A stretch of DNA of 64,000 nucleotides, taken from assembly GCA_943359345.1 (NCBI GenBank), contig CALRHE010000003.1, positions 82-64,081 of the forward strand, in the 5' to 3' direction. The translations under genes and the position numbers were made by a program. The notes under the pieces were generated by a model. That model saw only the letters and a list, made by a program, of their open reading frames with translations, did no database searches and was not told where the DNA came from. Below are positions 5,563-51,359 of this stretch, one piece after another (positions within the stretch are counted from its first letter, which is position 1; the number at the start of each line of letters is the position of its first letter). This DNA is from Candidatus Uhrbacteria bacterium (lineage in GTDB: Bacteria; Patescibacteriota; Patescibacteriia; UBA9934).

Positions 5563-5609
5563 TCCTCATCCTCATCCTTACCATACCTACTCATTTGCCT
5601 CTCAGATCA

Positions 5610-5705
5610 GGACGGATAGAGACGGATAAGCACGGATGCGAATAATCGTAGCGTTCACTGGAATCGACATTACATCCGTCCACATCCGTCTCTATCCGTG
5701 CTTAT
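5610..5705. repeat. Family-1 palindromic element: ACGGAT decamer repeats forming a long imperfect hairpin.
   Basis: ACGGATAGAGACGGAT (5612-5627) is the exact reverse complement of 5684-5699. An inner CGGATG/CATCCG pair and 10-bp-phased GACGGATAGA|GACGGATAAG|CACGGATGCG units are present. Homologous copies lie at 36465 and 32053. Confidence 0.7.
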
Positions 5706-9476: not shown

Positions 9477-9857
9477 ATGTCTGAAGCCAAGGCCCATGAT
9501 CTCACACCGGATCAGTACAACATCTGTTTCATGAAGGGCACCGAGCCGCCATTTAGCGGCAAGTATTACGATCACCATGAGGCGGGGGAGTATATTTGTG
9601 TGAATTGCGGCAAGTCGTTATTTGGGTCAGACACCAAGTTCGATTCTGGTACAGGCTGGCCGAGTTTTTCGGATGTGGTAAACAAGGGTAACGTTCTGAC
9701 CGAGGTCGACAAAACCTTGGGTATGACCAGAACTGAGGTTAAGTGCGCTAATTGCGAGGCCCATCTCGGTCACGTGTTTGAAGACGGTCCAGCACCTACC
9801 GGGCTACGTTATTGCATCAACTCATTGGCGCTCGATTTTAAACCAATCACCCCTTAA
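9477..9857 (+). CDS. msrB: Peptide methionine sulfoxide reductase B.
   Basis: Two CxxC pairs (CVNCGK / CANCEA) and the RYCINS active-site motif. Confidence 0.8.
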
Positions 9858-9893
9858 CACCGTTAACCCCTTCAACCCCTTCATTCACTCACC
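9848..9893 (+). repeat. C-rich intercistronic motif (CACCCCTTAACACCGTTAACCCCTTCAACCCCTTCATTCACTCACC).
   Basis: It overlaps the msrB stop codon and fills the spacer to the next start. It is the same motif class as 2926, 16475 and 37933. Confidence 0.55.
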
Positions 9894-9900
9894 GCCAGGT

Positions 9901-13959: not shown

Positions 13960-16465
<2,506 letters not shown>

Positions 16466-16474
16466 ACCGACATG

Positions 16475-16503
16475 ACCCCTCAACACCATCAGCCCCATTA
16501 ACC
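16475..16503 (+). repeat. C-rich intercistronic motif (GACCCCTCAACACCATCAGCCCCATTAACC).
   Basis: It follows the dnaK stop directly and belongs to the same TCAACCCC class. Confidence 0.5.
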
Positions 16504-16505
16504 TT

Positions 16506-17077: not shown

Positions 17078-18118
17078 GTGGCCAAAGATTATTATCAAAT
17101 TTTAGGCGTTGATCGTAAAGCCTCACAGGATGAGGTGAAGCGAGCTTTCCGCAAGCTCGCACATGAGCATCATCCAGATAAAGGTGGTAACGAGTCCAAG
17201 TTCAAAGAAATCAACGAGGCTTATCAAGCGCTTGGTGATTCTGAGAAACGGGCCCGTTACGATCAGTTTGGCTCGACCGACGGTTCACAAGGCTTTGGCG
17301 GCGGCGGTTTCCCGGGTGGTTTTGACCCGAATTCTTTTGGTGATCTGGGAGATTTGTTTGGTAACTTTTTCGGTGGCGGTGGTCGCGGTCGAACTCAACG
17401 AGGTCACGATGTTGAGACCGAGTTGTTTCTGAGCTTCAAGGAAGCAATTTTTGGTGTTTCAAAAGACATTCCTCTACACAAAACCAACGCCTGTGCTCGT
17501 TGCGGTGGTCAGGGTGCTGAGCCAGGTACGAAGCTGAAGACTTGCGATACCTGTAAGGGCAAAGGTTTCACGATTGCAACCCAGCGTACCATTCTTGGCT
17601 CGGTTCAGATGCGTGTGGCCTGCTCGGCCTGCGATGGTCGGGGAGAAAAGCCGGATAAGGCTTGTAGCGAGTGTTCCGGGAGCGGTACAACCCGAGGTCG
17701 TAAAGTTTTACGGGTTGATGTTCCGGCTGGGGTTGAAGACAACATGCAAATGCGTGTGCGTGGCGAGGGTGAGAGTATCGGCGCTCATGGCGAACCCGGC
17801 GATCTTTACCTGCGTTTGCGAGTGTCTCCGGATTCACGTTTCACTCGCGAGGGCACGACCATTTATCTAAAGAAGAAAATTGGCTTTAGCCAGGCGGCTC
17901 TTGGCGATACCGTTCAGGTTGACACCGTCGACGGTTTAGTAAGCATGAAGATTCCGCCCGGCACACAAAGCGGTGATGAGCTACGCTTACGGGGTAAGGG
18001 AGTGCCCCATGGTCGCGGCCGAGGGGATCAGATTGTGGTGATTCAGATTTTGACACCAACCAAACTAGATAAAAACACTAAGCGACTTCTAGAGGAGCTG
18101 AATCTCCGAGAAGACTAG
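17078..18118 (+). CDS. dnaJ: Chaperone DnaJ.
   Basis: J-domain (YYQILGV...HPDK), G/F-rich linker and four CxxCxG zinc-finger repeats. The start is GTG. Confidence 0.9.
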   Translation: MAKDYYQILGVDRKASQDEVKRAFRKLAHEHHPDKGGNESKFKEINEAYQALGDSEKRARYDQFGSTDGSQGFGGGGFPGGFDPNSFGDLGDLFGNFFGGGGRGRTQRGHDVETELFLSFKEAIFGVSKDIPLHKTNACARCGGQGAEPGTKLKTCDTCKGKGFTIATQRTILGSVQMRVACSACDGRGEKPDKACSECSGSGTTRGRKVLRVDVPAGVEDNMQMRVRGEGESIGAHGEPGDLYLRLRVSPDSRFTREGTTIYLKKKIGFSQAALGDTVQVDTVDGLVSMKIPPGTQSGDELRLRGKGVPHGRGRGDQIVVIQILTPTKLDKNTKRLLEELNLRED

Positions 18119-18123
18119 ATTTT

Positions 18124-18215
18124 AACCATCCTGAGCGAAGGCGAAGGATCCGGGACCGAGGCTGTTCACGAAATAGCCGTCGAGCTGCTAGTCCTTCGAC
18201 CTTCGTCTCAGGATA
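18124..18215. repeat. Family-3 hairpin element, copy A (AACCATCCTGAG...GAAGGA...CCTTCG...CTCAGGAT).
   Basis: An imperfect inverted repeat of about 21 bp flanks a loop of about 50 nt. Two further copies lie at 33989 and 50512. Confidence 0.7.
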
Positions 18216-18245
18216 GTATACGCAGTTAGGTATACTGTAGGGACT

Positions 18246-18746
18246 ATGCTCGAAGTTGTGACTGACTGGTTTACTGAAGCCCAAACTGGGATTGTTTGGG
18301 ATGCACTTGTGGTAGCAGGAATTTTTGCCGGGAGCGTAGTCTTTGCTTTTACTCTGGGTCGTAAGTCGCTGATCGTAGCTTTTGTAGCCGTGGTGTTTGC
18401 TGGCCTAGTGGTTCAGCTCATGCCCTCAACTGAAAGCATTCCTTACTTAGCTGATTATCCTGAGGCCCAAACAGATGTAGTTCTGTTTATACTGGGGGCG
18501 ATAATCTTTGGTTTGATCTTTCGCCGCAACCGTTTCTTTGAGCCGTACATAGTTCCCACTGGGCTTGAACGCTTTGTGTTCGCGGCTATCTTGGCCGGGT
18601 TAATTGTAGTAATCCTCGGATCTTTTTGGACGGGCGACACCCAAAGTGCTTACGTGGCCAAAATATTTTTTCATCCTGTGGCCCGTTTGGCTTGGCTTCT
18701 AGCTCCGGTTGTCATGCTGGCGATTTTTAGAGGCGATAATACTTAA
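18246..18746 (+). CDS. Hypothetical polytopic membrane protein, probably from a leaderless transcript.
   Basis: Four to five TM helices. A TATACT hexamer at 18231-18236 ends 9 nt before the ATG and there is no SD. Confidence 0.55.
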   Translation: MLEVVTDWFTEAQTGIVWDALVVAGIFAGSVVFAFTLGRKSLIVAFVAVVFAGLVVQLMPSTESIPYLADYPEAQTDVVLFILGAIIFGLIFRRNRFFEPYIVPTGLERFVFAAILAGLIVVILGSFWTGDTQSAYVAKIFFHPVARLAWLLAPVVMLAIFRGDNT

Positions 18747-21584: not shown

Positions 21585-24088
21585 TTGGTGCTCAACAACT
21601 CCAAGCTATCTTAATGTCAGTTCTGCCGACGCTCATCATTTTGGGAGTTCTTTTAGTTATTCTCAGTTTGGCTGCTTGGAAGCTGCGCCGGCGCTTTATG
21701 AAGCGAGCCCAAGCCCGTGATGGGGCCAATACCTTGGTTACCTTGCGCATCACGATTCCACGTTTTAAAAATGATGAAGACACCAAGCAGGCTGACAATT
21801 CAAGCAATCAGAAAGATAAGATCGCTGTGGCGGAAACTTTATTCTCGGCTTTGGGTGGACTCAAGCCGGAGCGAGGTTTTTGGAGCTGGTTAGTCGGGCG
21901 CACCGATAACTTTGCGCTTGAGATTGTGGCCCACGAAAAACTTGTGACTTTTTACGTCACAGTACCCCGTCGTTATCAAGAATTTGTAGAACAGCAAATT
22001 CATGCGCAGTGGAGCGACACCTTTGTTGAGCCGGTCGAGGATTACAACATGTTTGCGCCTACTGGCACAGTTGTGGCCGGTTACTTGAAATTTAAGAAAG
22101 AAAACTTATTACCGCTAAAAACTTATAAAGATATTGACGGCGACCCTTTGAACGCACTTACAAACGCCCTGTCTAAGGTGGGGGAGAGTGACGGCCTGGC
22201 CATTCAATACGTATTGCGACCGGCAGCTAGTGGTTGGAGATCGCTCGGTTTGAAGGTCGTCAAAAACATGCAGGCGGGCATGACGTTTAATGAGGCTAAG
22301 CACGGTAAAAAATCACACAGTTGGTTTGCTAACAAGGATACGCTCGAAAAAGACAAGGAAAAAATGCGTGAACGCAAACTTTCGTCCGCCGAAACCAAGA
22401 TGCTTGAAGGTATTGAGAATAAGCTCAGTAAAGCCGCGCTAGAGACCACCATTCGGGTAGTGGCTTCGGCTGGCACCAGCGAGCAAGCCATGATGTATCT
22501 GACTAATGTCTTACAGGCTTTTGGCCAATACAACATTTACGAGTACGGTAATGCTTTTGAGAAGAGTATTCCGTCTTCCAGACACGCCATCATCGAGGGT
22601 TTTATTTTCCGCACGCATAGTTCTAAGCATAGCTTGATTTTGACCACTGAAGAGCTGGCTAGTTTGTGGCACTTGCCGTTGCCCACCACTGAAACCCCGA
22701 ATATTCGCTGGATGAATGCGCGTACAGCGCCGGCACCCACCAACACCCCAACCAGCGGTTTGCACCTGGGTTTCAATGTCTACCGTGGTCGCCAGACCGA
22801 GATTTACATGCAGGACGCTGATCGACGGCGTCACATGTACATGATCGGTAAAACTGGTTCTGGTAAGACTGAGTTAATCAAGAACCTGGCCCTACAAGAT
22901 ATCAAAAATGGTAAAGGCGTAGCTGTGATTGATCCGCACGGTGATTTGGCCGACGACTTGTTGGGCTTGATTCCCAAGGAACGCTTGGATGACGTGATTT
23001 ATTTCAACCCTTCTGACCTAGAGCGTCCGATGGGCTTGAATATGCTTGAGGCGCCTGATGAAAACATGCGAGATTTTGTGGTCCAGGAAATGATCAGTAT
23101 TTTCTACATGTTATTTCCGCCGGAGATGATCGGTCCTATGTTCGAGCACAACATGCGTAACTACATGTTGACACTCATGGCCGACGTGGATAATCCTGGC
23201 ACCATTGTTGAGATCCCGCGCATGATTTCCGATGACGCTTTTCAAAAAGCCTGGGTGGCCAAGGTTAAGGATCCGCTCGTGCGGTCTTTCTGGGAAGACG
23301 AAATGGCTAAAACCTCTGATTATCACAAGAGTGAAATGATGGGCTACCTGGTGTCTAAGGTAGGTCGGTTTGTAGAGAACGAAATGATGCGCAATATCAT
23401 CGGGCAGACTAAGTCTGCTTTCAATTTCAGGGACATCATGGATAACGGCAAGATTTTGTTGGTTAACTTGTCGAAAGGTAAAACTGGTGAAGTTAACGCC
23501 TCACTTCTTGGTTTGATTTTAGTGGCTAAATTACAGATGGCCGCATTCTCTAGAGCCGATGTGCCTGAAGATCAACGACAAGACTTTTATTTGTACATTG
23601 ACGAATTCCAGAACTTCGTGACCCCTTCAATTGCGACCATTCTGTCTGAGGCTCGGAAGTATCGCCTGAATTTAGTGCTTGCTCACCAGTACATGGGGCA
23701 GCTGGTGCGTGATGGCAAGCCAGAAATCCGTGACGCTGTGCTTGGTAACGTCGGTACCATGATGGTGGCCCGGGTTGGTCCTGAGGATATTGAAACACTA
23801 GGTAAAGTGTTCGAACCAACGTTTACCGGGCATGATTTAATGAATACCGACATGTTCACTTGGAACGTGAAGATGATCATCAACAACGCTCAAGCCAAAC
23901 CGTTTACCATGGAAGCTTATCCGCCCACCAAGGCCAGCCGACAGGTGGCCGAGGCCCTTAAGGACATTTCTCGTCTCCAGTACGGGCAGGATAAAGATTC
24001 AGTCGCCAATGACATTTTAGAGCGAGCTGGCTATGCCTCACGTAAGCAGGTTCCTCCCACACCACCGTCGGTACCAACGAGTTTATAG
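21581..24088 (+). CDS. Membrane-anchored VirB4/VirD4-superfamily (TraC/TrbE/TraG-like) type-IV-secretion-type ATPase.
   Basis: N-terminal TM helix. A Walker A (GKTGSGKT) at about residue 425 is followed by a VIDPHGD motif, then Walker B (YIDEFQNF) and an LVLAHQYMGQL (ATQS-like) motif. Confidence 0.55.
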   Translation: MIGAQQLQAILMSVLPTLIILGVLLVILSLAAWKLRRRFMKRAQARDGANTLVTLRITIPRFKNDEDTKQADNSSNQKDKIAVAETLFSALGGLKPERGFWSWLVGRTDNFALEIVAHEKLVTFYVTVPRRYQEFVEQQIHAQWSDTFVEPVEDYNMFAPTGTVVAGYLKFKKENLLPLKTYKDIDGDPLNALTNALSKVGESDGLAIQYVLRPAASGWRSLGLKVVKNMQAGMTFNEAKHGKKSHSWFANKDTLEKDKEKMRERKLSSAETKMLEGIENKLSKAALETTIRVVASAGTSEQAMMYLTNVLQAFGQYNIYEYGNAFEKSIPSSRHAIIEGFIFRTHSSKHSLILTTEELASLWHLPLPTTETPNIRWMNARTAPAPTNTPTSGLHLGFNVYRGRQTEIYMQDADRRRHMYMIGKTGSGKTELIKNLALQDIKNGKGVAVIDPHGDLADDLLGLIPKERLDDVIYFNPSDLERPMGLNMLEAPDENMRDFVVQEMISIFYMLFPPEMIGPMFEHNMRNYMLTLMADVDNPGTIVEIPRMISDDAFQKAWVAKVKDPLVRSFWEDEMAKTSDYHKSEMMGYLVSKVGRFVENEMMRNIIGQTKSAFNFRDIMDNGKILLVNLSKGKTGEVNASLLGLILVAKLQMAAFSRADVPEDQRQDFYLYIDEFQNFVTPSIATILSEARKYRLNLVLAHQYMGQLVRDGKPEIRDAVLGNVGTMMVARVGPEDIETLGKVFEPTFTGHDLMNTDMFTWNVKMIINNAQAKPFTMEAYPPTKASRQVAEALKDISRLQYGQDKDSVANDILERAGYASRKQVPPTPPSVPTSL

Positions 24089-24090
24089 GT

Positions 24091-24207
24091 TTAGAAATTA
24101 CAAAATTAGATATTAGCAGAGAATAGAAAAGAGTACTTAGAATCGTTCCGTTTCAGTCAAATTTCTATTCTCTAATAGCTGCTAATATCTAATTTTGTAA
24201 TTTCTAA
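24091..24207. repeat. Family-2 AT-rich palindromic element, copy 1 (core ATTACAAAATTAGATATTAGCAG in both arms).
   Basis: Inverted repeat of about 40 bp (24091-24129 versus 24162-24207) with a 32-nt loop and one 6-nt indel (CTATTA) between arms. A second copy lies at 30506-30618. Confidence 0.75.
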
Positions 24208-24230
24208 TCCGTAGGGTAATATTCCGCCAT

Positions 24231-26051: not shown

Positions 26052-26125
26052 TCCGGGATCGTCTAAAGGCAGGACGAGGGACTCTGAATCCCTTAATCTT
26101 GGTTCGAATCCAAGTCCCGGAACCA
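26052..26125 (+). tRNA. tRNA-Gln (anticodon CUG), with an encoded CCA end.
   Basis: Manual cloverleaf fold. Acceptor TCCGGGA/TCCCGGA (U1:A72 as in bacterial tRNA-Gln), D-stem GTCT/GGAC with a GG loop, anticodon stem AGGGA/TCCCT, loop CT-CTG-AA, T-arm CTTGG-TTCGAAT-CCAAG, discriminator A and CCA. Confidence 0.85.
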
Positions 26126-26166
26126 CAAAAACACCTTTGCTTCGGCGGAGGTGTTTTTGTGGTTCC
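26125..26166 (+). terminator. Long hairpin capped by a UUCG tetraloop, acting as an intrinsic terminator after tRNA-Gln.
   Basis: ACAAAAACACCUUUGC-UUCG-GCGGAGGUGUUUUUGU. The inner GC-rich stem is followed by a U5 tract. Together with the tRNA 3' end it forms a 56-nt palindrome (26115-26170). Confidence 0.6.
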
Positions 26167-26292
26167 GGGACAGAGAAAGCCACCTGCTTGGCTTTCGACG
26201 GATTCGAACGCCGGAGCGATGTGCAGATACCAATCGGCACTGCGAGGCGGTGGCCAGGCCGATGGGAGTGACGGCGACCCGAGAGCCGAGGC

Positions 26293-30478: not shown

Positions 30479-30505
30479 AAGAAGAAGCAGAATACATTAA
30501 AGGAT

Positions 30506-30618
30506 CAGAAATTACAAAATTAGATATTAGCAGCTATTAGAGAAGTAGATATTAGACTCCTGATGGATTGGATCTAATTACTATTTTCTATTCTCTGCTA
30601 ATATCTAATTTTGTAATG
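30506..30618. repeat. Family-2 AT-rich palindromic element, copy 2.
   Basis: Left arm GAAATTACAAAATTAGATATTAGCAGCTATTAGAGAAG. The right arm is the reverse complement of CATTACAAAATTAGATATTAGCAGAGAATAGAAA. It sits in the divergent dus / RNase-J-like promoter region. Confidence 0.75.
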
Positions 30619-30663
30619 ACTAATCCTTCAAACTCCACACACCTTGCTATACTTGTATGTGTT

Positions 30664-32034
30664 ATGCGTTTGTCCTTCCATGGTGCCGTTGAAGAGGTGA
30701 CTGGATCATGTTTTTTAGTTGAAACAAAACGGGCTAAAGTTTTAATTGATGCTGGCATGAAGCAGGGTGAACGTATGTGCGTGACGCGCAGCCTGGATCC
30801 ATTTGGTTTTGATGTCACAGAGCTTGATGCTGTACTCGTCACCCATGCTCACTTTGATCATACCGGGCGCTTACCAGAACTCATCAAACTTGGTTATCGG
30901 GGCCCCATTTACATGACCGCTCCTACTAAGGCTCTAGTTGAGATTATTTTGGATGATGCCTTGAAAATCATGGCTGAAAACGCTGAACGCTGCGGTGACC
31001 CTACGCCTTACAGCGCGGATCACAAGCAGCTGGCTATGTCACTCATGCAGGGCCTGGGTTATCACACTGAATTTGAGGCCGCGCCCGGAATCAAGGTCAT
31101 GTTTCATGATGCTGGTCACATTCTGGGGTCATCTTTTGTGTCACTTGACCTTGAAGACTCGTTGACTGAAACAGGTAAACCCAAGCGGATAATTTTTAGC
31201 GGCGACATTGGTAACGATCACATTCCCATTTTGCCGGAGACCGAGTCTATCCATCAAGCTGATGTTGTAGTTTGTGAGTCGACTTATGGAGATTCAATTC
31301 ACGAACCGTCTGAGACCCGTACTTTGAGGCTGGCAGATTTTGCTAGCAAAGTTTTAAAGCGCGGGGGCACGCTGGTAATCCCAGCTTTTTCAATTGAACG
31401 TACTCAGGAACTTTTGCACGAGCTCGATATTATGCTGCTCGAGAAAAAACTTCCGGCTGTACCTATTTATCTAGATAGTCCGATGGCGATTAGAACGACT
31501 GAGGTTTATCGACACTTTAAACATTACTTGCATTTCGATCACCCCGTACTTGGACCTGACCAGGATTTTTTCTCATTTCCGTCTTTGCATGAAACCATGT
31601 CGACCGAGGAATCAAAGCAGATTAACCAAGATAAGCGGGCTAAGATTATTCTTGCCGGCAACGGCATGATGACCGGCGGACGAGTCCTGCATCATCTTAA
31701 ACATCACCTTGAGGATCCTTTAAGCGGGGTCCTGATTGTTGGCTACCAGGCGGCAGGAACGTTGGGACGTAGAATTTTTGATCGTGAAAAAACAGTGCGT
31801 ATTTACCGGGAAGAATATCAAGTCAGGGCCGAGGTTTTGGCTATTGGTGCTTTTTCAGCTCATGCTGACAAAGCTAAGCTGTTACGTTGGTTACACCCAG
31901 AGGAGGGTCAGGTGGCTAAAATCTTTTTGGTCCACGGCGATAATCCCGTGAAAGATGCCTTTGCAAAGTTTTTGAGTAAATCACTGTCGGCCGAGATTAT
32001 CATTCCGCGTTTATCGCAGACGTTTGAACTGTAA
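30664..32034 (+). CDS. Beta-CASP metallo-beta-lactamase-fold ribonuclease (RNase J / CPSF-like).
   Basis: HAHFDHTG (HxHxDH) plus beta-CASP motifs A (ESTYGD), B (SAHAD) and C (LVHGD). The start was set at MRLSFHG, downstream of the family-2 repeat. Confidence 0.75.
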   Translation: MRLSFHGAVEEVTGSCFLVETKRAKVLIDAGMKQGERMCVTRSLDPFGFDVTELDAVLVTHAHFDHTGRLPELIKLGYRGPIYMTAPTKALVEIILDDALKIMAENAERCGDPTPYSADHKQLAMSLMQGLGYHTEFEAAPGIKVMFHDAGHILGSSFVSLDLEDSLTETGKPKRIIFSGDIGNDHIPILPETESIHQADVVVCESTYGDSIHEPSETRTLRLADFASKVLKRGGTLVIPAFSIERTQELLHELDIMLLEKKLPAVPIYLDSPMAIRTTEVYRHFKHYLHFDHPVLGPDQDFFSFPSLHETMSTEESKQINQDKRAKIILAGNGMMTGGRVLHHLKHHLEDPLSGVLIVGYQAAGTLGRRIFDREKTVRIYREEYQVRAEVLAIGAFSAHADKAKLLRWLHPEEGQVAKIFLVHGDNPVKDAFAKFLSKSLSAEIIIPRLSQTFEL

Positions 32035-32052
32035 ACCAATACCTTTAAAAAT

Positions 32053-32084
32053 ATCAGGACGGATGGAGACGGATATGGACAGAG
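32053..32084. repeat. Family-1 half-element (ATCAGGACGGATGGAGACGGATATGGACAGAG) with no inverted partner.
   Basis: It shares the ATCAGGACGGATRGAGACGGATA core with 5604-5630 and 36470-36498. It is followed by a 7-bp hairpin (CAGACCC/GGGTCTG) between convergent genes. Confidence 0.55.
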
Positions 32085-32107
32085 TTTTCCAGACCCTTCA
32101 TATACAT

Positions 32108-32722
32108 TCAGGGTCTGAGACCAGTCCACTCGTAAAAACTTTTCGCAGCGGAGGTTGAGGGATCGAAGGAATTTGTCGAGATCAACGAGCCATCAAAAGT
32201 GTTGAATCGAGAAGTGAGCGAGGCCGTCGGCGTGAAGGCCGGGGTTTTTATTTTACAAGCGTCAGTAGCTAGGGGAGTGACATCAAGCTCATCACGCCAA
32301 CTGTAATGCACAAACTCACAAGCCGAGCCCTTAACTTGAGCAATTAGATTCCGAGCTTTGATGCTCGCTAAGCCATCTACAATCACTCGACCTTGAATTA
32401 GTTCGAGTTGAGTTTCGGTCTGGGCGGCAGGATTACGGTAATAACTTAAGCGCAGCTGCGTATTTTGGTCTAGATATAGATGCGTGCCATCGCAGAGTTC
32501 ATATTCGGCGTAATCATCTGCGCTCGTTGACATGATCTGGCCGCGTCCGACGACGGTGTCTCCGTAGACCAGTGTTGCCTGACATGGCTCGATACCACCA
32601 GAACCACCGGCCCAACGGGCGTCTAAACGTTGACCAACGAGAAGAACGCCAACCGTAATCACGATGAGCACGAGCAAAAAGATTAGGCTAACATTTCGCA
32701 TATTCACAGGCGAGTATGCCAT
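32108..32722 (-). CDS. Hypothetical N-terminally membrane-anchored protein.
   Basis: An N-terminal TM helix (VSLIFLLVLIVITVGVLLV) followed by an extracytoplasmic domain. No motif was recognised. Confidence 0.5.
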   Translation of the reverse strand: MAYSPVNMRNVSLIFLLVLIVITVGVLLVGQRLDARWAGGSGGIEPCQATLVYGDTVVGRGQIMSTSADDYAEYELCDGTHLYLDQNTQLRLSYYRNPAAQTETQLELIQGRVIVDGLASIKARNLIAQVKGSACEFVHYSWRDELDVTPLATDACKIKTPAFTPTASLTSRFNTFDGSLISTNSFDPSTSAAKSFYEWTGLRP

Positions 32723-32811: not shown

Positions 32812-33078
32812 ATGGCCTTACTTGAGTTCTACGGAGACACCTGCCCACATTGCATTACCATGAAGCCCTTGGTGGCAAAAGTAGAGAAAAAACTTGGAGT
32901 AACCTTTGAAAAGATCGAAGTATGGAACAATGAAGACAACGCTAAGCGTTTGTCAGAAATAGATAAAGGTTTGTGCGGTGGAGTGCCGTTCTTCTTTAAT
33001 ACTGAATCCAAACATTACATTTGTGGTTCGTGTGATGAAGCAGCGCTAAAGGCCTTGGTAGACGGCAGAAGGCCGTGA
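32812..33078 (+). CDS. Thioredoxin/glutaredoxin-like small redox protein.
   Basis: 88 aa with a CPHC (CxxC) active site near the N-terminus. Confidence 0.65.
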   Translation: MALLEFYGDTCPHCITMKPLVAKVEKKLGVTFEKIEVWNNEDNAKRLSEIDKGLCGGVPFFFNTESKHYICGSCDEAALKALVDGRRP

Positions 33079-33980
33079 GTATGAGAAAGTCGATGTTGGG
33101 ATTATCCTTGGCCACGGTGTTAACGCTGGGCGCGGGATGCACTATGCCACAACTGCCGGTATTTTCATTTTTGCCAAAAACTCTCCCGGCCACCGATATC
33201 AACCTGAGTGAGCATGCGAGCATCCAGCTGGAACAAACTGCTATCAATCCGCTTGAACGTCTGAGTAAGCAGCCACAGAGGTTGCTGGATATTCAAGACT
33301 GGGTAGCGGGTGATCGAGTCACCTTCAGCTGGTCGGAAACTTATGAGCGCGAGACGGCGGCCTCGATCGAAGCCCGCTCGGCGGCAGAGCGAGCAACTCC
33401 AGTGGGACAAGAGGCCAATGTTCCTGAGCCTGTGTACGAAACAATTTCGCTGGCGGGTTCGCTTAAGACCCAAGCTCTTGATGACGGTCAGCGCATTCTG
33501 TTGCCGTCTGAGTGGCCCGCGACCGATCACGACCTAACTAGCGAACCGAATACCCTCATCTGGCTCTCCAGGGCTCAGTATGACGAGCTTAGTTCCACCC
33601 GACACACACATTTATCCATCGGTGTGCTTGATGCTGGTTTACAGACAGTCGCGAGTGCAGCTGGGGCTATTCAGGAGTTGATAGCAAAAATTTCTGGCAG
33701 TGACGGTGCCGATTCTGTAGCCGAGCAAGACGTCACCGAGATCGTAGCCGACGCTGAATGGGGGACATACACGCTGATGTATCAGGGCGAAAAAGTGAAA
33801 GTTCAAACTCTTGAGGCTGAAAATAAATTCGCTAGCTATGTCATTTTAGCTAATCCTGAAAATCCCTTAATTCTTGAGGTCGAGCTTAAGTCCTGGGCTT
33901 ACGGGACTGAGGCGCTGGGGCTGATTAGCGAGGACCTCCAAGTGGCCGGTTATTCAGTAAGCAGTATAGCGATACCTTAA
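33075..33980 (+). CDS. Hypothetical lipoprotein.
   Basis: Signal peptide with an LTLGAGC lipobox. Confidence 0.5.
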   Translation: MSMRKSMLGLSLATVLTLGAGCTMPQLPVFSFLPKTLPATDINLSEHASIQLEQTAINPLERLSKQPQRLLDIQDWVAGDRVTFSWSETYERETAASIEARSAAERATPVGQEANVPEPVYETISLAGSLKTQALDDGQRILLPSEWPATDHDLTSEPNTLIWLSRAQYDELSSTRHTHLSIGVLDAGLQTVASAAGAIQELIAKISGSDGADSVAEQDVTEIVADAEWGTYTLMYQGEKVKVQTLEAENKFASYVILANPENPLILEVELKSWAYGTEALGLISEDLQVAGYSVSSIAIP

Positions 33981-33988
33981 AACAGTTA

Positions 33989-34072
33989 AACCATCCTGAG
34001 GCGAATGCCGAAGGATCCGTGACCGAGGCTTTTCAGCCGCGGGGACCCAACCCTTCGTCTAACTCAGGGTGG
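33989..34072. repeat. Family-3 hairpin element, copy B.
   Basis: AACCATCCTGAGGCGAATGCCGAAGGATCCGTGACCGAGGC ... CCCTTCGTCTAACTCAGGGTGG. The arms pair (CCATCCTGAG with CTCAGGGTGG, CGAAGG with CCTTCG). It lies between convergent genes. Confidence 0.7.
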
Positions 34073-34083
34073 TAATTTCGAGC

Positions 34084-34935
34084 TTACTCAAACTTGCCGA
34101 GCCAGTGCGGGTCGGTTTTAACCTCTAGCTCTAGGTAATATTTACGATTGGTAACGGCCTCGAGTTCATTGCGTACGGATTGACCAATTTCTTTGATGCC
34201 TTGTCCACCGCGACCGATGATCATAGGCTTATAACGTTCGGCGTTGGTATAGATGGTGGCTTTAACGTAGACGAGATTTTCGCTGCGCGGTTCGATGGCT
34301 TCGACTTCGACGTGGGTGGTGTAGGGGACCTCTTCGCGGAGGCGCAGGAATAGCTTTTCTCGGATCAGCTCGGCTAGCCAGGTTTCATTGGTTAGGTTTG
34401 TAAATTGGAACTCCGGGTACATCGGTTCGCCCTCAGGCAGCTGTTCAAAAATCCACGCTTCGACAAGATCAGTATTTTTTGCGGTCAGTGCCGATACTTC
34501 AACGTAGTTATCGAACTGATCCTTGAGGTCGCGGTAATAATCGATGTAGTTGCGCGCAGCTTTGTCGTCAATCATGTTGATAACAAGCAACTTGGGTTTA
34601 TCTACACCCTCGATCATTTTTAAAGCTTGTTTTTCCTCGTCGCCCAGGGCGCGAGTAGGGTCAGCCACATAGATAACAGCGTCGACGCCGTGGAGCGACT
34701 CCTTGGCGTAGGCCAGGAGTTTTTGAGTCAAGGGATCCTTGGCCTTTTGCATGATGCCAGGGGTGTCGATGACAACGGCTTGACCCTCTGGTCTGGAAAT
34801 AATTCCAGAAATTGGTAAACGGGTAGTTTGCGGTTTAGGGGTAGTGATAGCGACTTTGGAGCCGACAAGAGTATTTAAAAGTGTCGATTTTCCAACGTTT
34901 GAGCGTCCAATAATAGTGACTAGCCCTGATTTCAT
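34084..34935 (-). CDS. era: GTPase Era.
   Basis: G1 GRSNVGKST, G3 DTPG, G4 NMID/NKID-type motifs and a C-terminal KH domain. Confidence 0.85.
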   Translation of the reverse strand: MKSGLVTIIGRSNVGKSTLLNTLVGSKVAITTPKPQTTRLPISGIISRPEGQAVVIDTPGIMQKAKDPLTQKLLAYAKESLHGVDAVIYVADPTRALGDEEKQALKMIEGVDKPKLLVINMIDDKAARNYIDYYRDLKDQFDNYVEVSALTAKNTDLVEAWIFEQLPEGEPMYPEFQFTNLTNETWLAELIREKLFLRLREEVPYTTHVEVEAIEPRSENLVYVKATIYTNAERYKPMIIGRGGQGIKEIGQSVRNELEAVTNRKYYLELEVKTDPHWLGKFE

Positions 34936-35300: not shown

Positions 35301-36447
35301 ATACTTTTTTGACGAGTGCAGTGACTAGCTCTACATGCGGTGTGTGGGGGAACATGTCTATGGCGCGAATATGCTCGACATCATAATATTTTCCGAGTTC
35401 CACCATTTCCCGTGCGAAGTTTTTATAGTTACAGGATACGTAAACGATGCGTGATGGTAGGGCAGCGATGACATCACGCAGAGCTTTGTCGTGCATGCCG
35501 GCACGTGGCGGGTCGAGAATTACCACATCAGCTCCAATTTCCATCCAGTTGTAGTCTTCGGTTTTGGCGTCATGGAAATCGATTGTGACACCATTCAGCT
35601 CAGCGTTTAAGCGAGCGTCTTTGATAGCTTCGGGCACAAGCTCGACGCCGAGAGTTTGCTTAGCATCATTGGCCATTGAGATAGCGAAGAAGCCTGTACC
35701 GCAGTAAAGGTCGAGCAAGGTTTTGTCGGTTAGGTCGCCCGCAAACTCACGGATAGTATCCTGCAAGTAGACAGCTCCAGTTGGATTGGTTTGAAAGAAA
35801 GCGTTTGGTGAAATACGATATTTGTAACCGCCGATGTGTTCTTCGATAGCCCCAGGGCCGTATAAAACTCGCAGCTCATCCCCAATTGAGACATCGGAGA
35901 TGGTGTGGTTAAGCGACCAAACAAGGGTCGTGGGGCCAGCCAGATCGTTGAGTTTCTCGAAAGCTAGTTTAGCGGCGGCTTCTTCGTCAGCATCTTTCGG
36001 CGTGCTGGTCACGATCGTTAACATCGTTTGTCCAAGTGTGGTTGATCGGATGACCGCGTAACGCAAGAAACCGATATTGGCTTTACGATCGTAAAAACTC
36101 AGACCAGCATTTTTAGCCCAGTCACGAGCAGCCGTATATAGAGTATCGATCTGTTCGTCGGCGAGAAAACAAGAGTGATCGTCAATCACGCGCCACCATT
36201 TGCCCTTTTCACGTAGCCCGACGGCACCCTGCCAGTCGATCACAAAGTCCATGCGATTGCGGTAGTGCTCGGTTTTAGGTGCGGGAATAATTTCCTCGAC
36301 TCGGAGGTCGAGTTTTTTGATTTTAAACGAACCGTTAATATCGGAGAGTTTTTGCTGGAGTTGTTTCTGATAGGGAATGTGTGACCAGCCACATGAACCG
36401 CAGACATCAGGTTTGGGGCAAAGCGTTTGCATATTTGAACATTCCAA
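35299..36447 (-). CDS. rlmD: 23S rRNA (uracil-5)-methyltransferase, RlmD/RumA family.
   Basis: N-terminal Cys cluster (CPKPDVCGSCGWS), a SAM site LDLYCGTGFF and a DPPRAG motif. Confidence 0.75.
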   Translation of the reverse strand: MECSNMQTLCPKPDVCGSCGWSHIPYQKQLQQKLSDINGSFKIKKLDLRVEEIIPAPKTEHYRNRMDFVIDWQGAVGLREKGKWWRVIDDHSCFLADEQIDTLYTAARDWAKNAGLSFYDRKANIGFLRYAVIRSTTLGQTMLTIVTSTPKDADEEAAAKLAFEKLNDLAGPTTLVWSLNHTISDVSIGDELRVLYGPGAIEEHIGGYKYRISPNAFFQTNPTGAVYLQDTIREFAGDLTDKTLLDLYCGTGFFAISMANDAKQTLGVELVPEAIKDARLNAELNGVTIDFHDAKTEDYNWMEIGADVVILDPPRAGMHDKALRDVIAALPSRIVYVSCNYKNFAREMVELGKYYDVEHIRAIDMFPHTPHVELVTALVKKV

Positions 36448-36464
36448 CCCAATTTAAATAAACT

Positions 36465-36570
36465 GATTGGGACAGATGGAGACGGATTGGGACGGATGCC
36501 AGACGATGTGGGATAGTGTGACTCGGGCTTATTTTACATCCGTTCATATCCGTCTCCATCTGTTCTTATG
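36465..36570. repeat. Family-1 palindromic element (second full copy).
   Basis: ACAGATGGAGACGGAT (36472-36487) is the exact reverse complement of 36549-36564, and an ACGGATG/CATCCGT extension follows. It sits in the divergent rlmD / trmH-like intergenic region. Confidence 0.7.
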
Positions 36571-36645
36571 GCAGCCTCGGTAGAGTTGGTTTGGTGGTTA
36601 TACCTGAGTACTCGGTAATTGTAAAAATAACCTAAATAAGTTATC

Positions 36646-37169: not shown

Positions 37170-37931
37170 ATGCAAAATCATACTTCAACAGTTTCAATCG
37201 TTATTCCAGCCAAGAATGAAGAACGGTATTTGCCGAGGCTGCTTAAGGATCTACATCAGCAAACCCACGTTCCCGAGCAGATCATTTTAGCCGACGCTCA
37301 GTCGACTGACAGAACCAGAGAGATTGGTGCCGAGCATGGTTGCCTCATTGTTGAGGGTGATATGCCGGGCCCTGGTCGCAATGCCGGAGCCAAAATTGCC
37401 ACCGGCGAGATTCTTTTGTTCTTAGATGCCGATGTGCAAATTCGCAATCGATTTTTTATTGAAGCCGCACTTGAGGAGTTTAATAAACAACACTTCGACT
37501 TGGCAGCGCCTGACATTCATCTGATCGGCGGTAACCGAGCAGATAAATTTGGTCATGATTTTTATAATTTTTACGTACGCCTGTGGGGTGCCAGATGGCC
37601 ACATGCTCCGGGATTTTGTACGTTTATTCGTCGGAGTCTGTTTGAGCAAATCGGTGGGTTCGATCCGTCGGTAATCTTATGTGAAGACCATGAATTGGCT
37701 CAGCGAGCCAGAAAACACGGTAAATTTGGGATCCTAGAGAGTGTTAGTATCGGGGTCACGGATAGACGCTTGCGGCGCGACGGCGGTTTAGTGGTGGCTG
37801 CAAAATATGTGTTAGCTGAGCTGCACATGTTGATTCTGGGCCCAATTCGGCACAACGCTTTTCATTATGATTTTGGATACGATCTAGATAAAGATGGGGT
37901 TAAGGGGGTTGATGAGGTTGATGGTGTATAG
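37170..37931 (+). CDS. Family-2 glycosyltransferase.
   Basis: VSIVIPAKNEE ... ILADAQSTDRT ... LFLDADV (DxD), the GT-A fold signature. Confidence 0.7.
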   Translation: MQNHTSTVSIVIPAKNEERYLPRLLKDLHQQTHVPEQIILADAQSTDRTREIGAEHGCLIVEGDMPGPGRNAGAKIATGEILLFLDADVQIRNRFFIEAALEEFNKQHFDLAAPDIHLIGGNRADKFGHDFYNFYVRLWGARWPHAPGFCTFIRRSLFEQIGGFDPSVILCEDHELAQRARKHGKFGILESVSIGVTDRRLRRDGGLVVAAKYVLAELHMLILGPIRHNAFHYDFGYDLDKDGVKGVDEVDGV

Positions 37932-37932
37932 G

Positions 37933-37965
37933 CACCCCTCAACTCCCTCAACCCCATAAACCCCG
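37933..37965 (+). repeat. C-rich intercistronic motif (CACCCCTCAACTCCCTCAACCCCATAAACCCCG).
   Basis: It follows the GT2 stop directly and belongs to the same TCAACCCC class. Confidence 0.55.
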
Positions 37966-48027: not shown

Positions 48028-49485
48028 ATGTCACAACTCGCTAGAAACACCCTGATGCTGACGGCTGCCTCGATAGGACAGAAGTTAATTGCCTTCCTGT
48101 ACTTTGCCCTAATTGCCCGCACCATCGGTGAGGATTCCTTGGGATCGTATTTCATCGCTCTAGCCATGGTGACGACCATCGGGGTGCTCGATGACGTCGG
48201 TTTGACCTCGGTTACTATCCGCGAGGTCGCCAAGACGCCAGAGCGGGCCAAGGAGCTCATTCGCAACGTGATCGGAATTAAGCTCATCACCATGCCAGTG
48301 ACGATCGGACTGGCTTTTTTGTTGCCTGATTGGCGGGGGTTTGATGGTGAAACAACCATGCTCATACAGATCGCGATTGCGGTCATGTTACTCGATACCT
48401 TGTCGGTTAGTATGTACGGCGTTTTGCGCGGCATGCATCAGCTCAAGTATGAGTCGATAGGAATCTTTGTTGGTCAATCATTGACGGCTATTGTCGGATC
48501 AGTCGCGCTCGTGGTCGGCTCTGGTGACCTGCGTCTGCTCGTAGTCGCCTTGATTGTTGGCAGCGGCTGGAACATGTTGTTCTCGATTTTCCATGTCGTA
48601 CGTCGTTTAGGGCTAGACGCGCTCAAGCCGTCGTGGTCGCAAGCCATGCCGATGCTACGCATGAGTTTCATGTTTTTCTTGGCGGCCGTGTTCGTAAAGG
48701 TCTATTCCTACATCGACTCCTTTATGATCGAAGAGTTTTTGGGGAAGGGGGCAGTGGGAATTTATGCGGTCGCTTACAAATTCACGTATGCGTTTCAGTT
48801 CCTACCCCTAGCCTTCGTCGGTGCTCTGTATCCGACCATGAGTTCGTTCGCAAGTAACCCGATCGAGCTAAACAAGACGCTTATCAAGGCCGAGTGGTAC
48901 CTGATGATGTTAGCCGCGCCGATTGTGTTTGGAATTTTTGCGTTAGCACCTGAGATTATCGATACGGTTTACGGGGCTAAATACGCAGCCGCCGCTCCTG
49001 TGCTCGAGGTTTTGATCTTCGTACTACTGTTAATCTTCCTTGATTTTCCAATCGGCTCACTCTTGAATGCTACTGGCAAGCAAGCGATCAAGACCGGAAT
49101 TATGGGTGGCGCTATGATTATAAACATCGTTGGGAACCTGCTGATGGTACCAGCCTATGGGATTATGGGTGCAGCCCTTGCGGCCTTGTGCACCTTCGTG
49201 TTCCTGTTTGGAGCTGGTTGGCTGGCAGTTATGCGAGTTTCGAAAGCGAGTTTTACCGAACTCGTAACAACGGTTTGGGGTTTCTTTGCTGCCGGTCTGG
49301 TTATGGCGGCGACGGTTATTTTCCTCAAAGAATATATTTATTGGATACTGACTATTCCTGTCGGTGCCTGTGTTTTCATAGGGTTGTCGTTTGCTACCAA
49401 AACCCTGACGGTGAATCACCTCAAGCAGGCTTATAACCTGATTCGTAGACCCGCATATGCCAAGAGTACTCTTACCGACAATTGA
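48028..49485 (+). CDS. Wzx-like polysaccharide/O-unit flippase (MOP superfamily).
   Basis: A 12-14 TM protein of 485 aa at the head of a glycosyltransferase cluster. Confidence 0.65.
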   Translation: MSQLARNTLMLTAASIGQKLIAFLYFALIARTIGEDSLGSYFIALAMVTTIGVLDDVGLTSVTIREVAKTPERAKELIRNVIGIKLITMPVTIGLAFLLPDWRGFDGETTMLIQIAIAVMLLDTLSVSMYGVLRGMHQLKYESIGIFVGQSLTAIVGSVALVVGSGDLRLLVVALIVGSGWNMLFSIFHVVRRLGLDALKPSWSQAMPMLRMSFMFFLAAVFVKVYSYIDSFMIEEFLGKGAVGIYAVAYKFTYAFQFLPLAFVGALYPTMSSFASNPIELNKTLIKAEWYLMMLAAPIVFGIFALAPEIIDTVYGAKYAAAAPVLEVLIFVLLLIFLDFPIGSLLNATGKQAIKTGIMGGAMIINIVGNLLMVPAYGIMGAALAALCTFVFLFGAGWLAVMRVSKASFTELVTTVWGFFAAGLVMAATVIFLKEYIYWILTIPVGACVFIGLSFATKTLTVNHLKQAYNLIRRPAYAKSTLTDN

Positions 49486-50506
49486 TTATCCACCGGCACG
49501 TGGAGGAGTGGCCAGATACATTGGTGCGATTCTAAAAACCTACCCTGACCAGGTTACGCTTTTGACGTTGAAGAAGAAGTTAAAAGTCGGCAATGTCGTT
49601 TTACAATTTTTATTCCGAGCTCGTAGTTACGACAGTATCTGGACGCACCACATTTTGCCAATTGGTACCGCAGCCATGATTGCCAAGGCGTTTACCAAAA
49701 AACCGTACGTAGTTTTTTTGCATGGGCTTGATTTTGATTTGGCCCGTCATCACCTCTGGAAACGAGACGTCGCCAAAAGAGTTTTACAACAGGCTGACCG
49801 CATCGTAACCAACTCAGAAGCCCTAGCGTCGGAGGTCAGAGCTTTCGTACAGTCTGACCGCACACCAATCGTGGTCTATCCCACGCTTGAAGATCAGTTT
49901 ATCGAGGCTGCTACAGCTCCGCGCAAGCTTGGTGAAAAAGTTAACCCTTCCTTACGTCAGGGTCGTGGAGCGGATGAGGCCTCGATACGATTGCTCACCG
50001 TTGCTCGTTTGGTTGAACGCAAGGGTCATCTGAAAGTGCTTGAGGCTCTTAAGGAGCTCCCTGAGGCGACCTATCACATCGTAGGTGACGGGCCGTACTT
50101 TGGAACAATCGCTAAGGCGATTAAAGATCTTGGTCTGCAGGATCGTGTCCGGATCTCTAAGAATGTTAGCGACGAAGAACTGCCAGATGTTTATCGCGAG
50201 GCTGACATTTTTGTGATGCCGACCACCAAAACCCAGACGGATCGCGAAGGTTTCGGGATCGTTTACCTCGAGGCCCAGCTATTCGGTCTGCCAGTCATCG
50301 CGACACGTCATCCAGGCGTTGATGAAGCGATTCGGGACGGGGAAGGGGGCCTATTGATTGGCGATACGCCTCATGAGCTCGTCACAGCCATTCAGCGTTT
50401 GAAGGATCCCGCAGTTAGGAGTAAATTTGCTGCCCGCGGCCGGGCTTGGGTAGAACGTGAGTTTAACCGCGAGCAGCAGATGTATAAACTCCGTGAGTTA
50501 CTATGA
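49457..50506 (+). CDS. Family-4 glycosyltransferase.
   Basis: GT-B EX7E-like region (EGFGIVYLEAQLFGLPVIAT). Confidence 0.7.
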   Translation: MPRVLLPTIDYPPARGGVARYIGAILKTYPDQVTLLTLKKKLKVGNVVLQFLFRARSYDSIWTHHILPIGTAAMIAKAFTKKPYVVFLHGLDFDLARHHLWKRDVAKRVLQQADRIVTNSEALASEVRAFVQSDRTPIVVYPTLEDQFIEAATAPRKLGEKVNPSLRQGRGADEASIRLLTVARLVERKGHLKVLEALKELPEATYHIVGDGPYFGTIAKAIKDLGLQDRVRISKNVSDEELPDVYREADIFVMPTTKTQTDREGFGIVYLEAQLFGLPVIATRHPGVDEAIRDGEGGLLIGDTPHELVTAIQRLKDPAVRSKFAARGRAWVEREFNREQQMYKLRELL

Positions 50507-50511
50507 ATTAA

Positions 50512-50591
50512 AACCATCCTGACGTAAGGAAGGATTAGCAGCCCAGAGGCTATCAGCCGCCGTGACCTAACCCTTCGTAACCTCAGGGTGG
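50512..50591. repeat. Family-3 hairpin element, copy C.
   Basis: AACCATCCTGACGTAAGGAAGGATTAGC ... CCCTTCGTAACCTCAGGGTGG, located between two co-directional GT genes. Confidence 0.7.
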
Positions 50592-50598
50592 CTACCGT

Positions 50599-51306
50599 AT
50601 GCACCCCTTGATATCAGTTGTAATACCTGCCTACCAACACGCCGGTTCATTACCGAAGTGTTTAGCGTCGATTTTTGCGCAAACATATCAGCCGCTCGAA
50701 ATTATTGTTGTCGACGACGGCTCGACAGATAACACGCAGGAGGTGTTGGCGAGCTATGCTGATCGCGTCACGATCGTGAAGCAGGCCAATGCTGGAGCCA
50801 ACCCAGCTCGTAACCGAGGTTTTAAGGAGGCTAAAGGCGAGTACGTCATTTTCTGCGATGCCGACGTCGGCATGAGTCCAAAGATGCTCGAAACGATGTT
50901 TAGTGAGCTCCAAAAGCATCCTGAGGCGAGTTACGCCTACAGCGGCTTCTGGTTTGGCTGGAAGCACTTTAAAGGCATACAGTTTGATGCTCATCGCCTG
51001 CGACAACTGAATTTTGTACATACGAGCTCGCTTGTTCGTCGCGCTGACTTTCCGGGCTTTGATAACACCATTCGTCGCCTTCAAGATTGGGACGTGTGGC
51101 TGACTATGCTCGAACAGGGAAAAGTCGGTACACTGGTTCCAGACACCCTGTTTAGTGTGAGTATCGATGGGGCTTCACGCATTGGCTCGTCCTGGCTGCC
51201 AGCCTTTATCTATCGCTTACCCTGGCATAGGTTTGGCTGGAAGCCGCGACGAGTGAAGAAATATGAGGATGCGCGTGAGGTTATTAGACAGAAACACCAA
51301 CTTTAA
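50599..51306 (+). CDS. Family-2 glycosyltransferase.
   Basis: ISVVIPAYQ ... VDDGSTDNT ... CDADV DxD motif. Confidence 0.7.
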   Translation: MHPLISVVIPAYQHAGSLPKCLASIFAQTYQPLEIIVVDDGSTDNTQEVLASYADRVTIVKQANAGANPARNRGFKEAKGEYVIFCDADVGMSPKMLETMFSELQKHPEASYAYSGFWFGWKHFKGIQFDAHRLRQLNFVHTSSLVRRADFPGFDNTIRRLQDWDVWLTMLEQGKVGTLVPDTLFSVSIDGASRIGSSWLPAFIYRLPWHRFGWKPRRVKKYEDAREVIRQKHQL

Positions 51307-51359
51307 GATATTCGGTCCACTAAGACGCCGATCGGCGTCTTAGTGGACCGAATCGAAAT

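Follow-up and report, generated by a model that had tools for sequence, protein, structure and literature searches.

The 64-kb window analysed here (the whole stretch of DNA, 64,000 nt from a Candidatus Uhrbacteria bacterium) carries three copies of a hairpin element of 80-94 nt, spaced ~16 kb apart among housekeeping genes, a modest density of 3 per 64 kb. Copy 1 (18124-18217) is located between dnaJ (17078-18118) and the gene for a 166-aa protein without a Pfam domain (18246-18746). Copy 2 (33989-34073) is situated between the gene for a 301-aa protein, likewise without a Pfam domain (33075-33980, + strand), and era, which faces it (34084-34935, - strand). Copy 3 (50512-50592) separates GT4 (49457-50506) from GT2 (50599-51306). 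All three copies read on the + strand, are intergenic, and start 4-7 nt past the stop codon of a + strand gene. No ORF of 80 aa or more spans the element. The pattern AACCATCCTGA-N55-85-CTCAGGRT has exactly three matches in the 64 kb (18124-18214, 33989-34070, and 50512-50589, all on the + strand) and none in 100 dinucleotide-preserving shuffles, and each match folds as a long hairpin. Both the positions and the flanking genes reported in an earlier, sequence-only reading of this DNA are thereby borne out. In the covariance-model search that the same reading had proposed, the family model, against which copies 1, 2, and 3 score 55 (model R1), 83.6, and 75.8 bits, found no further full copy in the window but did recover additional family copies in relatives, for example at loci L076 and L077.

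Folded as one long hairpin, the copies have predicted RNA minimum free energies of -51.1 (copy 1), -39.4 (copy 2), and -32.6 kcal/mol (copy 3), corresponding to z scores of -6.1, -4.2, and -3.8, and no shuffled sequence equalled the native fold; the reverse strand folds about as stably as the + strand. The arms CCATCCTGAG and CTCAGGRTGG constitute a 10 bp terminal inverted repeat. Conservation extends well beyond these arms. The proposal that the stems are kept while the loops diverge does not agree with the alignment of the three copies, in which mean column identity is 72% over the entire element and the blocks GAAGGAT, GAGGCT, AGCCG, and GAC are conserved. Immediately outside the hairpin, the left flanks are alike between copies (ATTTTAACC and ATTAAAACC) and the right flanks are unrelated (TATACGCAG versus CTACCG).

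Each arm is also a 20-24 nt hairpin in its own right, of the form AUCCU-GA-mini stem-loop-GA-AGGAU, such that the element can be folded either as one long hairpin or with each unit by itself. The left unit encloses a mini-stem of 2-3 bp and a tetraloop between its two GA steps. The right unit is of the complementary type, unlike the left one and usually shortened, with the stem ACCCU/AGGGU; the pair of unlike units is a 'heterodimer'. In copy 1, the 5' arm unit (AUCCU-GA-GC.GAAG.GC-GA-AGGAU, 18128-18149, + strand) has a predicted local stability of -8.6 kcal/mol and is followed by a spacer (18150-18190, + strand) that folds into a hairpin of its own (GGCTGTTCACGAAATAGCC) and by a 3' arm unit of the full-length complement type (GUCCU-UCGACCUUCGUCUC-AGGAU, 18191-18214, + strand). 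The corresponding units of copy 2 are AUCCU-GA-GGC.GAAU.GCC-GA-AGGAU (33993-34016, + strand) and the short type ACCCU-UCGUCUAACUC-AGGGU (34050-34070, + strand), and those of copy 3 are AUCCU-GA-C.GUAA.G-GA-AGGAU (50516-50535, + strand) and ACCCU-UCGUAACCUC-AGGGU (50570-50589, + strand), the end of which, AGGGUGG, lies 7 nt 5' of the GT2 start codon.

The predicted stability as RNA favors the long hairpin (-33 to -50 kcal/mol, versus -15 to -28 kcal/mol for three local hairpins), and the comparative evidence points to pairing within the arms. On an alignment of 17 family members, RNAalifold picks the two local arm hairpins over the long one. The local hairpins have 95.4% of cells paired, a covariation score reached by only 5 of 500 shuffles, and no systematic mismatch, whereas the long hairpin has 87.8% of cells paired, covariation indistinguishable from that of shuffles, and an A.C at one pair in 16 of the 17 members. 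Differences between arms had been read as mostly compensatory for the long hairpin and hence as a hint of selection on RNA structure. In the long hairpin they are not compensatory, with T:G in place of T:A in P1 and the near-fixed A.C mismatch in the inner helix, and selection on the RNA structure finds no support either in the covariation of that hairpin or in Rfam, where copies 1 and 2 have no match even at E<=10. The U.G of P1 and the A.C of P3 are instead the two halves of one compensated pair within the 3' arm (ACCCU/AGGGU), and since they compensate each other only there, arm-local hairpins are indicated. The asymmetry of G:U versus A:C favors neither strand, with P1 pointing to the + strand and P3 and the outermost pair to the - strand.

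Variation across the family follows the local pairing. The 5' arm mini-stem varies with compensation (GAC.GAAG.GUC, GGU.GAAU.ACC, GGC.GAAU.GCC, GC.GAAG.GC, C.GUAA.G, and GU.NNCG.AC), and both variable positions of the 3' arm consensus A(C/U)CCU-...-AGG(G/A)U covary. When the motif xCCTTC..CAGGy is tallied over all loci, the paired states T/A (80) and C/G (29) greatly outnumber C/A (4) and T/G (5). None of the elements checked, 15 of them scored and two (L076 and L077) read by hand, has a disrupted 5-bp local stem. The L076 variant carries four coordinated changes (AUCCC/GGGAU and ACCCC/GGGGU), and the L077 variant (AUUCU/AGAAU) keeps the local stem and gives the long hairpin a second A.C. L053 and L055, which look like one site because the upstream flank GTCGATCGTTT is common to both, differ at two compensatory pairs of the mini-stem.

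The units are not confined to paired arms. Single units stand alone at L038 (1342-1363 and 1259-1280), L053 (96-117), and L054 (3815-3834), and units nested in or beside one another occur in L062, L077, and L070. In L062 (3195-3313), a short 3' arm unit (ACCCTTCG...CTCAGGGT) holds a full-length one (TCCTTCGSCCTTCGCYCAGGAC) in its loop, and in L077 (6914-7030) and L070 (1993-2120), a full-length 3' arm unit is inserted directly before a short one. Within the window, a regular-expression scan and a weak covariance-model match identify a single unit, ACCCUGA-CGUAAG-GAAGGGU (49944-49963, - strand), in the coding sequence of GT4, where it is in frame and encodes PSLRQG on the + strand. Its CGUAAG mini-loop is that of the copy 3 arm, with a C-G in the stem instead of U-A, and the inter-domain linker of GT4 around it bears no relation to that of L073-L075, which is 16 aa longer. 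This unit is flanked by a 24-nt inverted repeat of 75% complementarity (49900-49923 and 49964-49987), the left arm of which is native coding sequence, and an identical unit is found at L053 482-501 in a different sequence context. Two further sequences look like units, and either could be a degenerate unit or have arisen by chance: ACCCTTCGGCAGGCTCAGGGC within the dnaK coding sequence (14856-14876; also in L067), and ACCCTTCATATACATTCAGGGT at 32093-32114, which overlaps the stop codon of a - strand gene and starts just ahead of it.

Syntenic loci of relatives, obtained via homologues of the flanking proteins (59-95% identity), provide both filled and empty versions of the same junctions; the sources of these homologues place the organism in Patescibacteria, near Uhrbacteria. 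In L073, L074, and L075, the GT4 and GT2 genes overlap as ATGA, the stop and start codons sharing a single ..TATGA.. sequence. At this site the window reads CTATGA, followed by ATTAAAACCATCC...GGGTGGCTACCG and then TATGC, an addition of 91-92 nt. Relative to the three empty sites, the target is duplicated on the + strand, with the left copy, TATG(A) (50502-50505), containing the GT4 stop codon TGA and the right copy, TATG(C) (50598-50601), containing the GT2 start codon ATG. This duplication of 4-5 bp, which restores both the GT4 stop and the GT2 start, is the only clean one, and its site is under selection for keeping both codons.

The junction downstream of dnaJ is more variable. It is a 17-nt spacer in L066 and L069, holds textbook intrinsic terminators in L071 and L072 and a different repeat in L070, and contains the element only in the window and in L067, which is 94.7% identical to the window over 17.6 kb and has an identical copy. 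The block present in these two and absent from L066 and L069 (18119-18229, + strand) is bounded by CTAG (18115-18118, including the dnaJ stop codon) and TTAG (18226-18229). Judged from these sequences, the two boundaries could be a target duplication or equally a stop codon and the tail of an older terminator, an ambiguity that arises because L071 and L072 have ...TTTAG GTATACT after their terminators at the same place. The GTATACT box itself (window 18230-18245) is conserved in L066, L069, L070, L071, and L072 whatever precedes it, at a distance of 9-10 nt before the ATG of the 166-aa gene, and could represent a -10-like promoter element from which a nearly leaderless mRNA would start.

At the era junction, L076 has no element, only 13 nt that include a small terminator, and L077 has a related, differently flanked nested element together with a separate bidirectional terminator; CTTA is a candidate duplication at this site, and the comparison with L076 and L077 does not establish one. 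A further orthologous junction is occupied in both orientations, antisense in L016 and L033 and sense in L062, with no target duplication evident in these three loci. Old, orthologous copies exist as well: L076 and L077 each have one upstream of uppS, and another persists between L016 and L033. The comparison of filled and empty sites shows that the copies are lineage-specific insertions into gene junctions.

The element is widely distributed. Scanning one genome per species with the pattern ACCATCCTGA-N4-16-GAAGGAT-N25-55-CCTTCG returned 48 loci, against a chance expectation that we roughly estimate at a handful. At least 26 of the 48 are full hairpin elements with a matching 3' arm, and these come from Alpha- and Gammaproteobacteria, Acidobacteriota, Nitrospirota, Gemmatimonadota, Chloroflexota, Zixibacteria, and Patescibacteria; the other genome matches are coincidences in coding sequence, such as a Lachnospiraceae IS3-type transposase and a glycoside hydrolase-like gene (labels read from the translations). 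At least six or seven bacterial phyla thus have the arm sequence, whose canonical form outside the window is GACCATCCTGAGCTTGTCGAAGGATC or ..CTGAGCGCAGCGAAGGATC. BLAST places unannotated arms in plasmids or chromids of cultured Novosphingobium, Methylobacterium, Comamonas, Microvirga, Variovorax, Rhizobium, and Dolichospermum, and a stricter pattern, run against metagenomes, contributed 13 more loci, most of them from Hainich H41 groundwater. Viral contigs scanned for the pattern gave no matches.

Copies in Patescibacteria have common interior modules, namely a short, variable mini-hairpin after CUGA, the block GGAUYAG-NAG, one of two alternative central hairpins, and GACCUAACCCUUCG. Of 12 family copies at co-directional junctions, about 10 have the orientation of the upstream gene, a bias that could reflect strand-specific selection. 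The outward end, CAGGRTGG, is followed at 3-16 nt by the start of a long ORF in 10 of 20 elements, in either orientation; in the window, GT2 starts 7 nt beyond the Shine-Dalgarno-like AGGGUGG. In the predicted long hairpin, this end is paired with the CCAUCC adjoining the upstream stop codon. The proteobacterial form (L007 5957-6250 and similar loci) has been called as small proteins containing ...DHPELVEGS...PFDKLRADG..., and repeat-derived ORFs of this kind have probably given rise to spurious hypothetical proteins in databases. Neither the arm sequence nor the repeat-encoded peptide strings led to anything relevant in literature searches, and a search on CPR/Patescibacteria together with palindromic repeats or MITEs found no description.

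Several established classes of hairpin were considered as identities for the element. It occupies the slot after the stop codon in which L071 and L072 have canonical intrinsic terminators, and like them it forms a G+C-rich hairpin. This identity was nevertheless rejected, as there is no U-tract on either strand at any copy; the stem is moreover far longer, the sequence belongs to a repeated family, and L077 keeps a separate, real terminator beside its element. Consensus scans of both strands at the three copies detected neither a hairpin with a T-run nor a sigma-70-like promoter. A curated structured RNA family was likewise rejected for want of a covariance-model match: at the gathering threshold, Rfam 15 recognizes only two tRNAs in the window and nothing in 19 related loci, and copies 1 and 2 have no match even at E<=10. 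The resemblance of CUGA...GAA to a hammerhead-like three-way junction fails because the core G8 and A9 are not conserved, and Rfam is silent. Integron attC sites carry the core sites R''(RYYYAAC)...R'(GTTRRRY) at their ends and are found in cassette arrays with an integrase nearby. The element ends in ..AACCATCC and GGRTGGY.. without core sites, there is no integrase in the window, and the copies are 16 kb apart among housekeeping genes. The attC reading, like those of a DGR and of CRISPR, was rejected on anatomy.

The architecture of the element invites comparison with small repeats known from other bacteria. Like REP dimers, BIMEs, and REPINs (Di Nocera et al. 2013, PMC3733652; Bertels & Rainey 2011, PMC3116915), it is built on a 20-24 nt imperfect palindrome that is found singly or as an inverted doublet around a structured spacer; the stems and loops of the partners differ, the doublet folds as two small hairpins or one large one, and copies lie mostly 3' of genes at co-directional or convergent junctions, occasionally within genes, and form mosaics with other modules. 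REP dimers have been described that fold separately or as one large stem-loop, and heterodimers and structured spacers are also on record (PMC3733652). REP superfamilies are defined (PMC3733652) by a conserved, unpaired GTAG or CGTC tag at one end of the unit. The unit found here agrees with the general definition of a REP unit as an imperfect palindrome of 20-40 nt occurring as singlets and inverted doublets, but neither tag is present, the units being preceded by CC/ACC and followed by T/C-A/C-G (TAG, CAG, CCG) or CTAG. It further departs from these systems in the lack of a RAYT in the window, in the 4-5 bp target duplication at one clean site, in its small-genome Patescibacteria host, and in the number of phyla, at least six or seven, that have the arm sequence. 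HUH single-strand (Y1) transposition is not known to leave a target-site duplication, and GT4/GT2, the one clean site, does have one.

Bacterial MITEs that are near-complete palindromes include Correia/NEMIS (Neisseria), ERIC, RUP, and Nezha. With these the element shares a length of 80-110 nt, non-coding character, terminal inverted repeats, a target duplication (here at one clean site), insertion polymorphism, and, as a stable hairpin that would be co-transcribed into mRNA, a potential to alter the expression of its neighbors. It is small and non-coding, is bounded by terminal inverted repeats, and is polymorphic for presence and absence at orthologous sites, as a MITE would be. In contrast to such MITEs, the element could not be matched to a cognate full-length IS sharing its ends, its outermost nucleotides vary between copies and do not form inverted repeats, and each arm is itself a conserved hairpin held by compensatory changes. 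Candidate enzymes were sought as well, a RAYT (Y1 HUH) gene being typically bordered by its REPs. Among the window proteins scanned with Pfam, no transposase, RAYT/HUH, or integrase domain is present, nor does one occur in the Pfam-annotated loci of syntenic relatives. In ~0.9 Mb of retrieved loci there is no cognate IS with the same terminal repeats, and no protein family was found to recur next to the elements across phyla. The genes between two copies in the Novosphingobium locus L044 are ordinary ones (a POT/MFS transporter, a thioesterase, and a DHQ synthase).

We conclude that the element is probably a non-autonomous, non-coding mobile DNA repeat resembling REP dimers, BIMEs, and MITEs. 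The REP-like DNA repeat that the sequence-only reading offered as one of its options is thus the option that has gained support, from the inverted palindromic dimer, its absence from orthologous junctions of relatives, its occurrence in both orientations, and the single, nested, and intragenic units. The element is ordinary in kind, with an arm sequence that is unnamed in Rfam and in the literature searched. It would be copied in trans by an enzyme encoded elsewhere. The duplication at GT4/GT2 suggests staggered cutting, as by a DDE-type transposase, and the unit architecture appears akin to the REP/REPIN substrates of HUH tyrosine transposases; the unlike right-hand outside sequences (TATACGCAG and CTACCG) are awkward for a precise transposase and leave room for template-switch copying.

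There are other accounts of how the element spreads. A specific form of the REP-like reading is that it is a REPIN, a REP doublet copied by a single-copy RAYT (HUH Y1) elsewhere in the genome and inherited vertically with it. The short imperfect palindrome, the singlets and spaced inverted doublets, and the choice of one long or two small hairpins all fit, REP dimers typically combine unlike partners and have structured spacers (PMC3733652), and the orthologous copies in L076/L077 and L016/L033 persist as vertical inheritance would have it; yet the units lack a GTAG or CGTC tag, the window encodes no Y1 transposase, the clean site has a 4-5 bp duplication, which Y1 transposition is not known to make, and a strictly vertical inheritance of REPIN and RAYT is hard to square with near-identical arms in at least six or seven phyla, so that we regard this identity as doubtful, with some weight nonetheless. 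Transposition might also be dispensed with, if the palindromes were seeded locally by replication template switching or by gene conversion between hairpins (quasi-palindrome correction). Such copying would account for the four coordinated changes of L076 that keep both local and long-range pairing, for units nested in the loops of other units, for the inverted repeat around the unit at 49944-49963 with its native left arm, and for the variable, non-inverted nucleotides directly outside the hairpin; on its own it leaves unexplained both the clean TATG(A) duplication at GT4/GT2 and the near-identical 80-nt elements at unlinked sites and in different phyla, and we consider it very improbable indeed. 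A bolder proposal sees in the 20-24 nt unit (AUCCU-GA-mini hairpin-GA-AGGAU) a pan-bacterial mobile module that, even in minimal CPR genomes and without a dedicated transposase, is spread by a conserved host function (replication/repair template switching or a ubiquitous nuclease) and is tolerated or recruited for a self-sequestered Shine-Dalgarno sequence that re-creates translational coupling; this is speculative, and we think it decidedly unlikely to be correct.

A different kind of explanation is that the element is primarily a selected cis-acting RNA, whether an intercistronic stabilizer, a terminator lacking a U-tract, or a translational-coupling device, repeated because a useful module was reused. 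Its RNA hairpins are very stable, all three window copies lie 4-7 nt past a stop codon, their orientation is that of the upstream gene, as it is for ~10 of 12 family copies at co-directional junctions, the element at the dnaJ junction stands in place of the classical intrinsic terminators of L071 and L072, and in half of the copies the Shine-Dalgarno-like outward end is properly spaced for the next gene. Set against these points, the junctions of close relatives manage without the element, with a 4-nt overlap or with spacers of 13-17 nt, L016 and L033 have it antisense at one and the same junction, and one unit lies within coding sequence. The long hairpin shows no covariation beyond that of shuffles and has its fixed A.C mismatch, no Rfam family corresponds to it, no U-tract or terminator consensus is present, and L077 has a bona fide terminator beside its element. 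With neither a U-tract terminator nor a promoter at the copies, the intercistronic stabilizer or terminator RNA put forward by the sequence-only reading is unsupported, and we judge a primary role of this kind improbable.

As a mobile repeat, the element nevertheless plausibly has a secondary effect on mRNA, since it would be co-transcribed and is predicted to be very stable as RNA. Transcription together with the upstream gene is suggested by the lack of a promoter of its own and by its location within operon-like strings of genes. An RNA hairpin of -33 to -50 kcal/mol situated 4-7 nt past a stop codon could protect or define the 3' end of an mRNA, and on the predicted structure, the element probably acts, incidentally, as an mRNA hairpin with a Shine-Dalgarno-like outward end. 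That end (CAGGRUGG) would be sequestered in the basal helix, in which case it would become accessible only when a ribosome terminates translation of the upstream gene. Coupling, which in relatives comes from the ATGA overlap, might then be restored structurally by the hairpin, and this would explain how insertion into the translationally coupled GT4/GT2 pair has been tolerated.

Small palindromic repeats (REPs, BIMEs, and MITEs) are well known in Proteobacteria; the host here is a small, gene-dense genome of the Patescibacteria/CPR. CPR genomes evidently still gain intergenic mobile hairpins, even between translationally coupled genes, and the arm sequence is common to at least five or six phyla besides Patescibacteria. 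Such elements yield spurious small ORFs (e.g., ...HPELVEG.../...FDKLR...) and can pass for regulatory RNAs, and recognizing them averts both errors. How hairpin insertion affects translational coupling could be read from the GT4/GT2 junction, which exists in filled and empty form as a clean natural experiment.

The window also contains other repeats. A second hairpin family, with GGACGGAT-like periods of 8-10 nt (ATCAGGACGGATAGAGACGGAT... / ...CATCCGTCTCTATCCGT), is found at 5606-5705, 32033-32083, and 36446-36571; a piece of this family lies directly beside the element after dnaK in L070, which suggests that the modules combine in mosaics. A third, A+T-rich family of ~130 nt is located at 24083-24210 and 30497-30631, with arms of 48-54 nt that are 83% complementary, and BLAST detects three pieces of it in L067. 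Arrays with a C-rich period of 9 nt (CCCCTCAAC / CCCCTTAAC) are situated just past stop codons at 2919-2966, 9850-9896, 16467-16505, and 37935-37964, the last of which pairs with a G-rich complement at 37893-37924. Two perfect palindromes are present as well, one at 51310-51353, with arms of 22+22 nt and no loop, between two GT2 genes, and one at 26114-26171, with 23-nt arms, which begins within the 3' end of the tRNA at 26052-26122.
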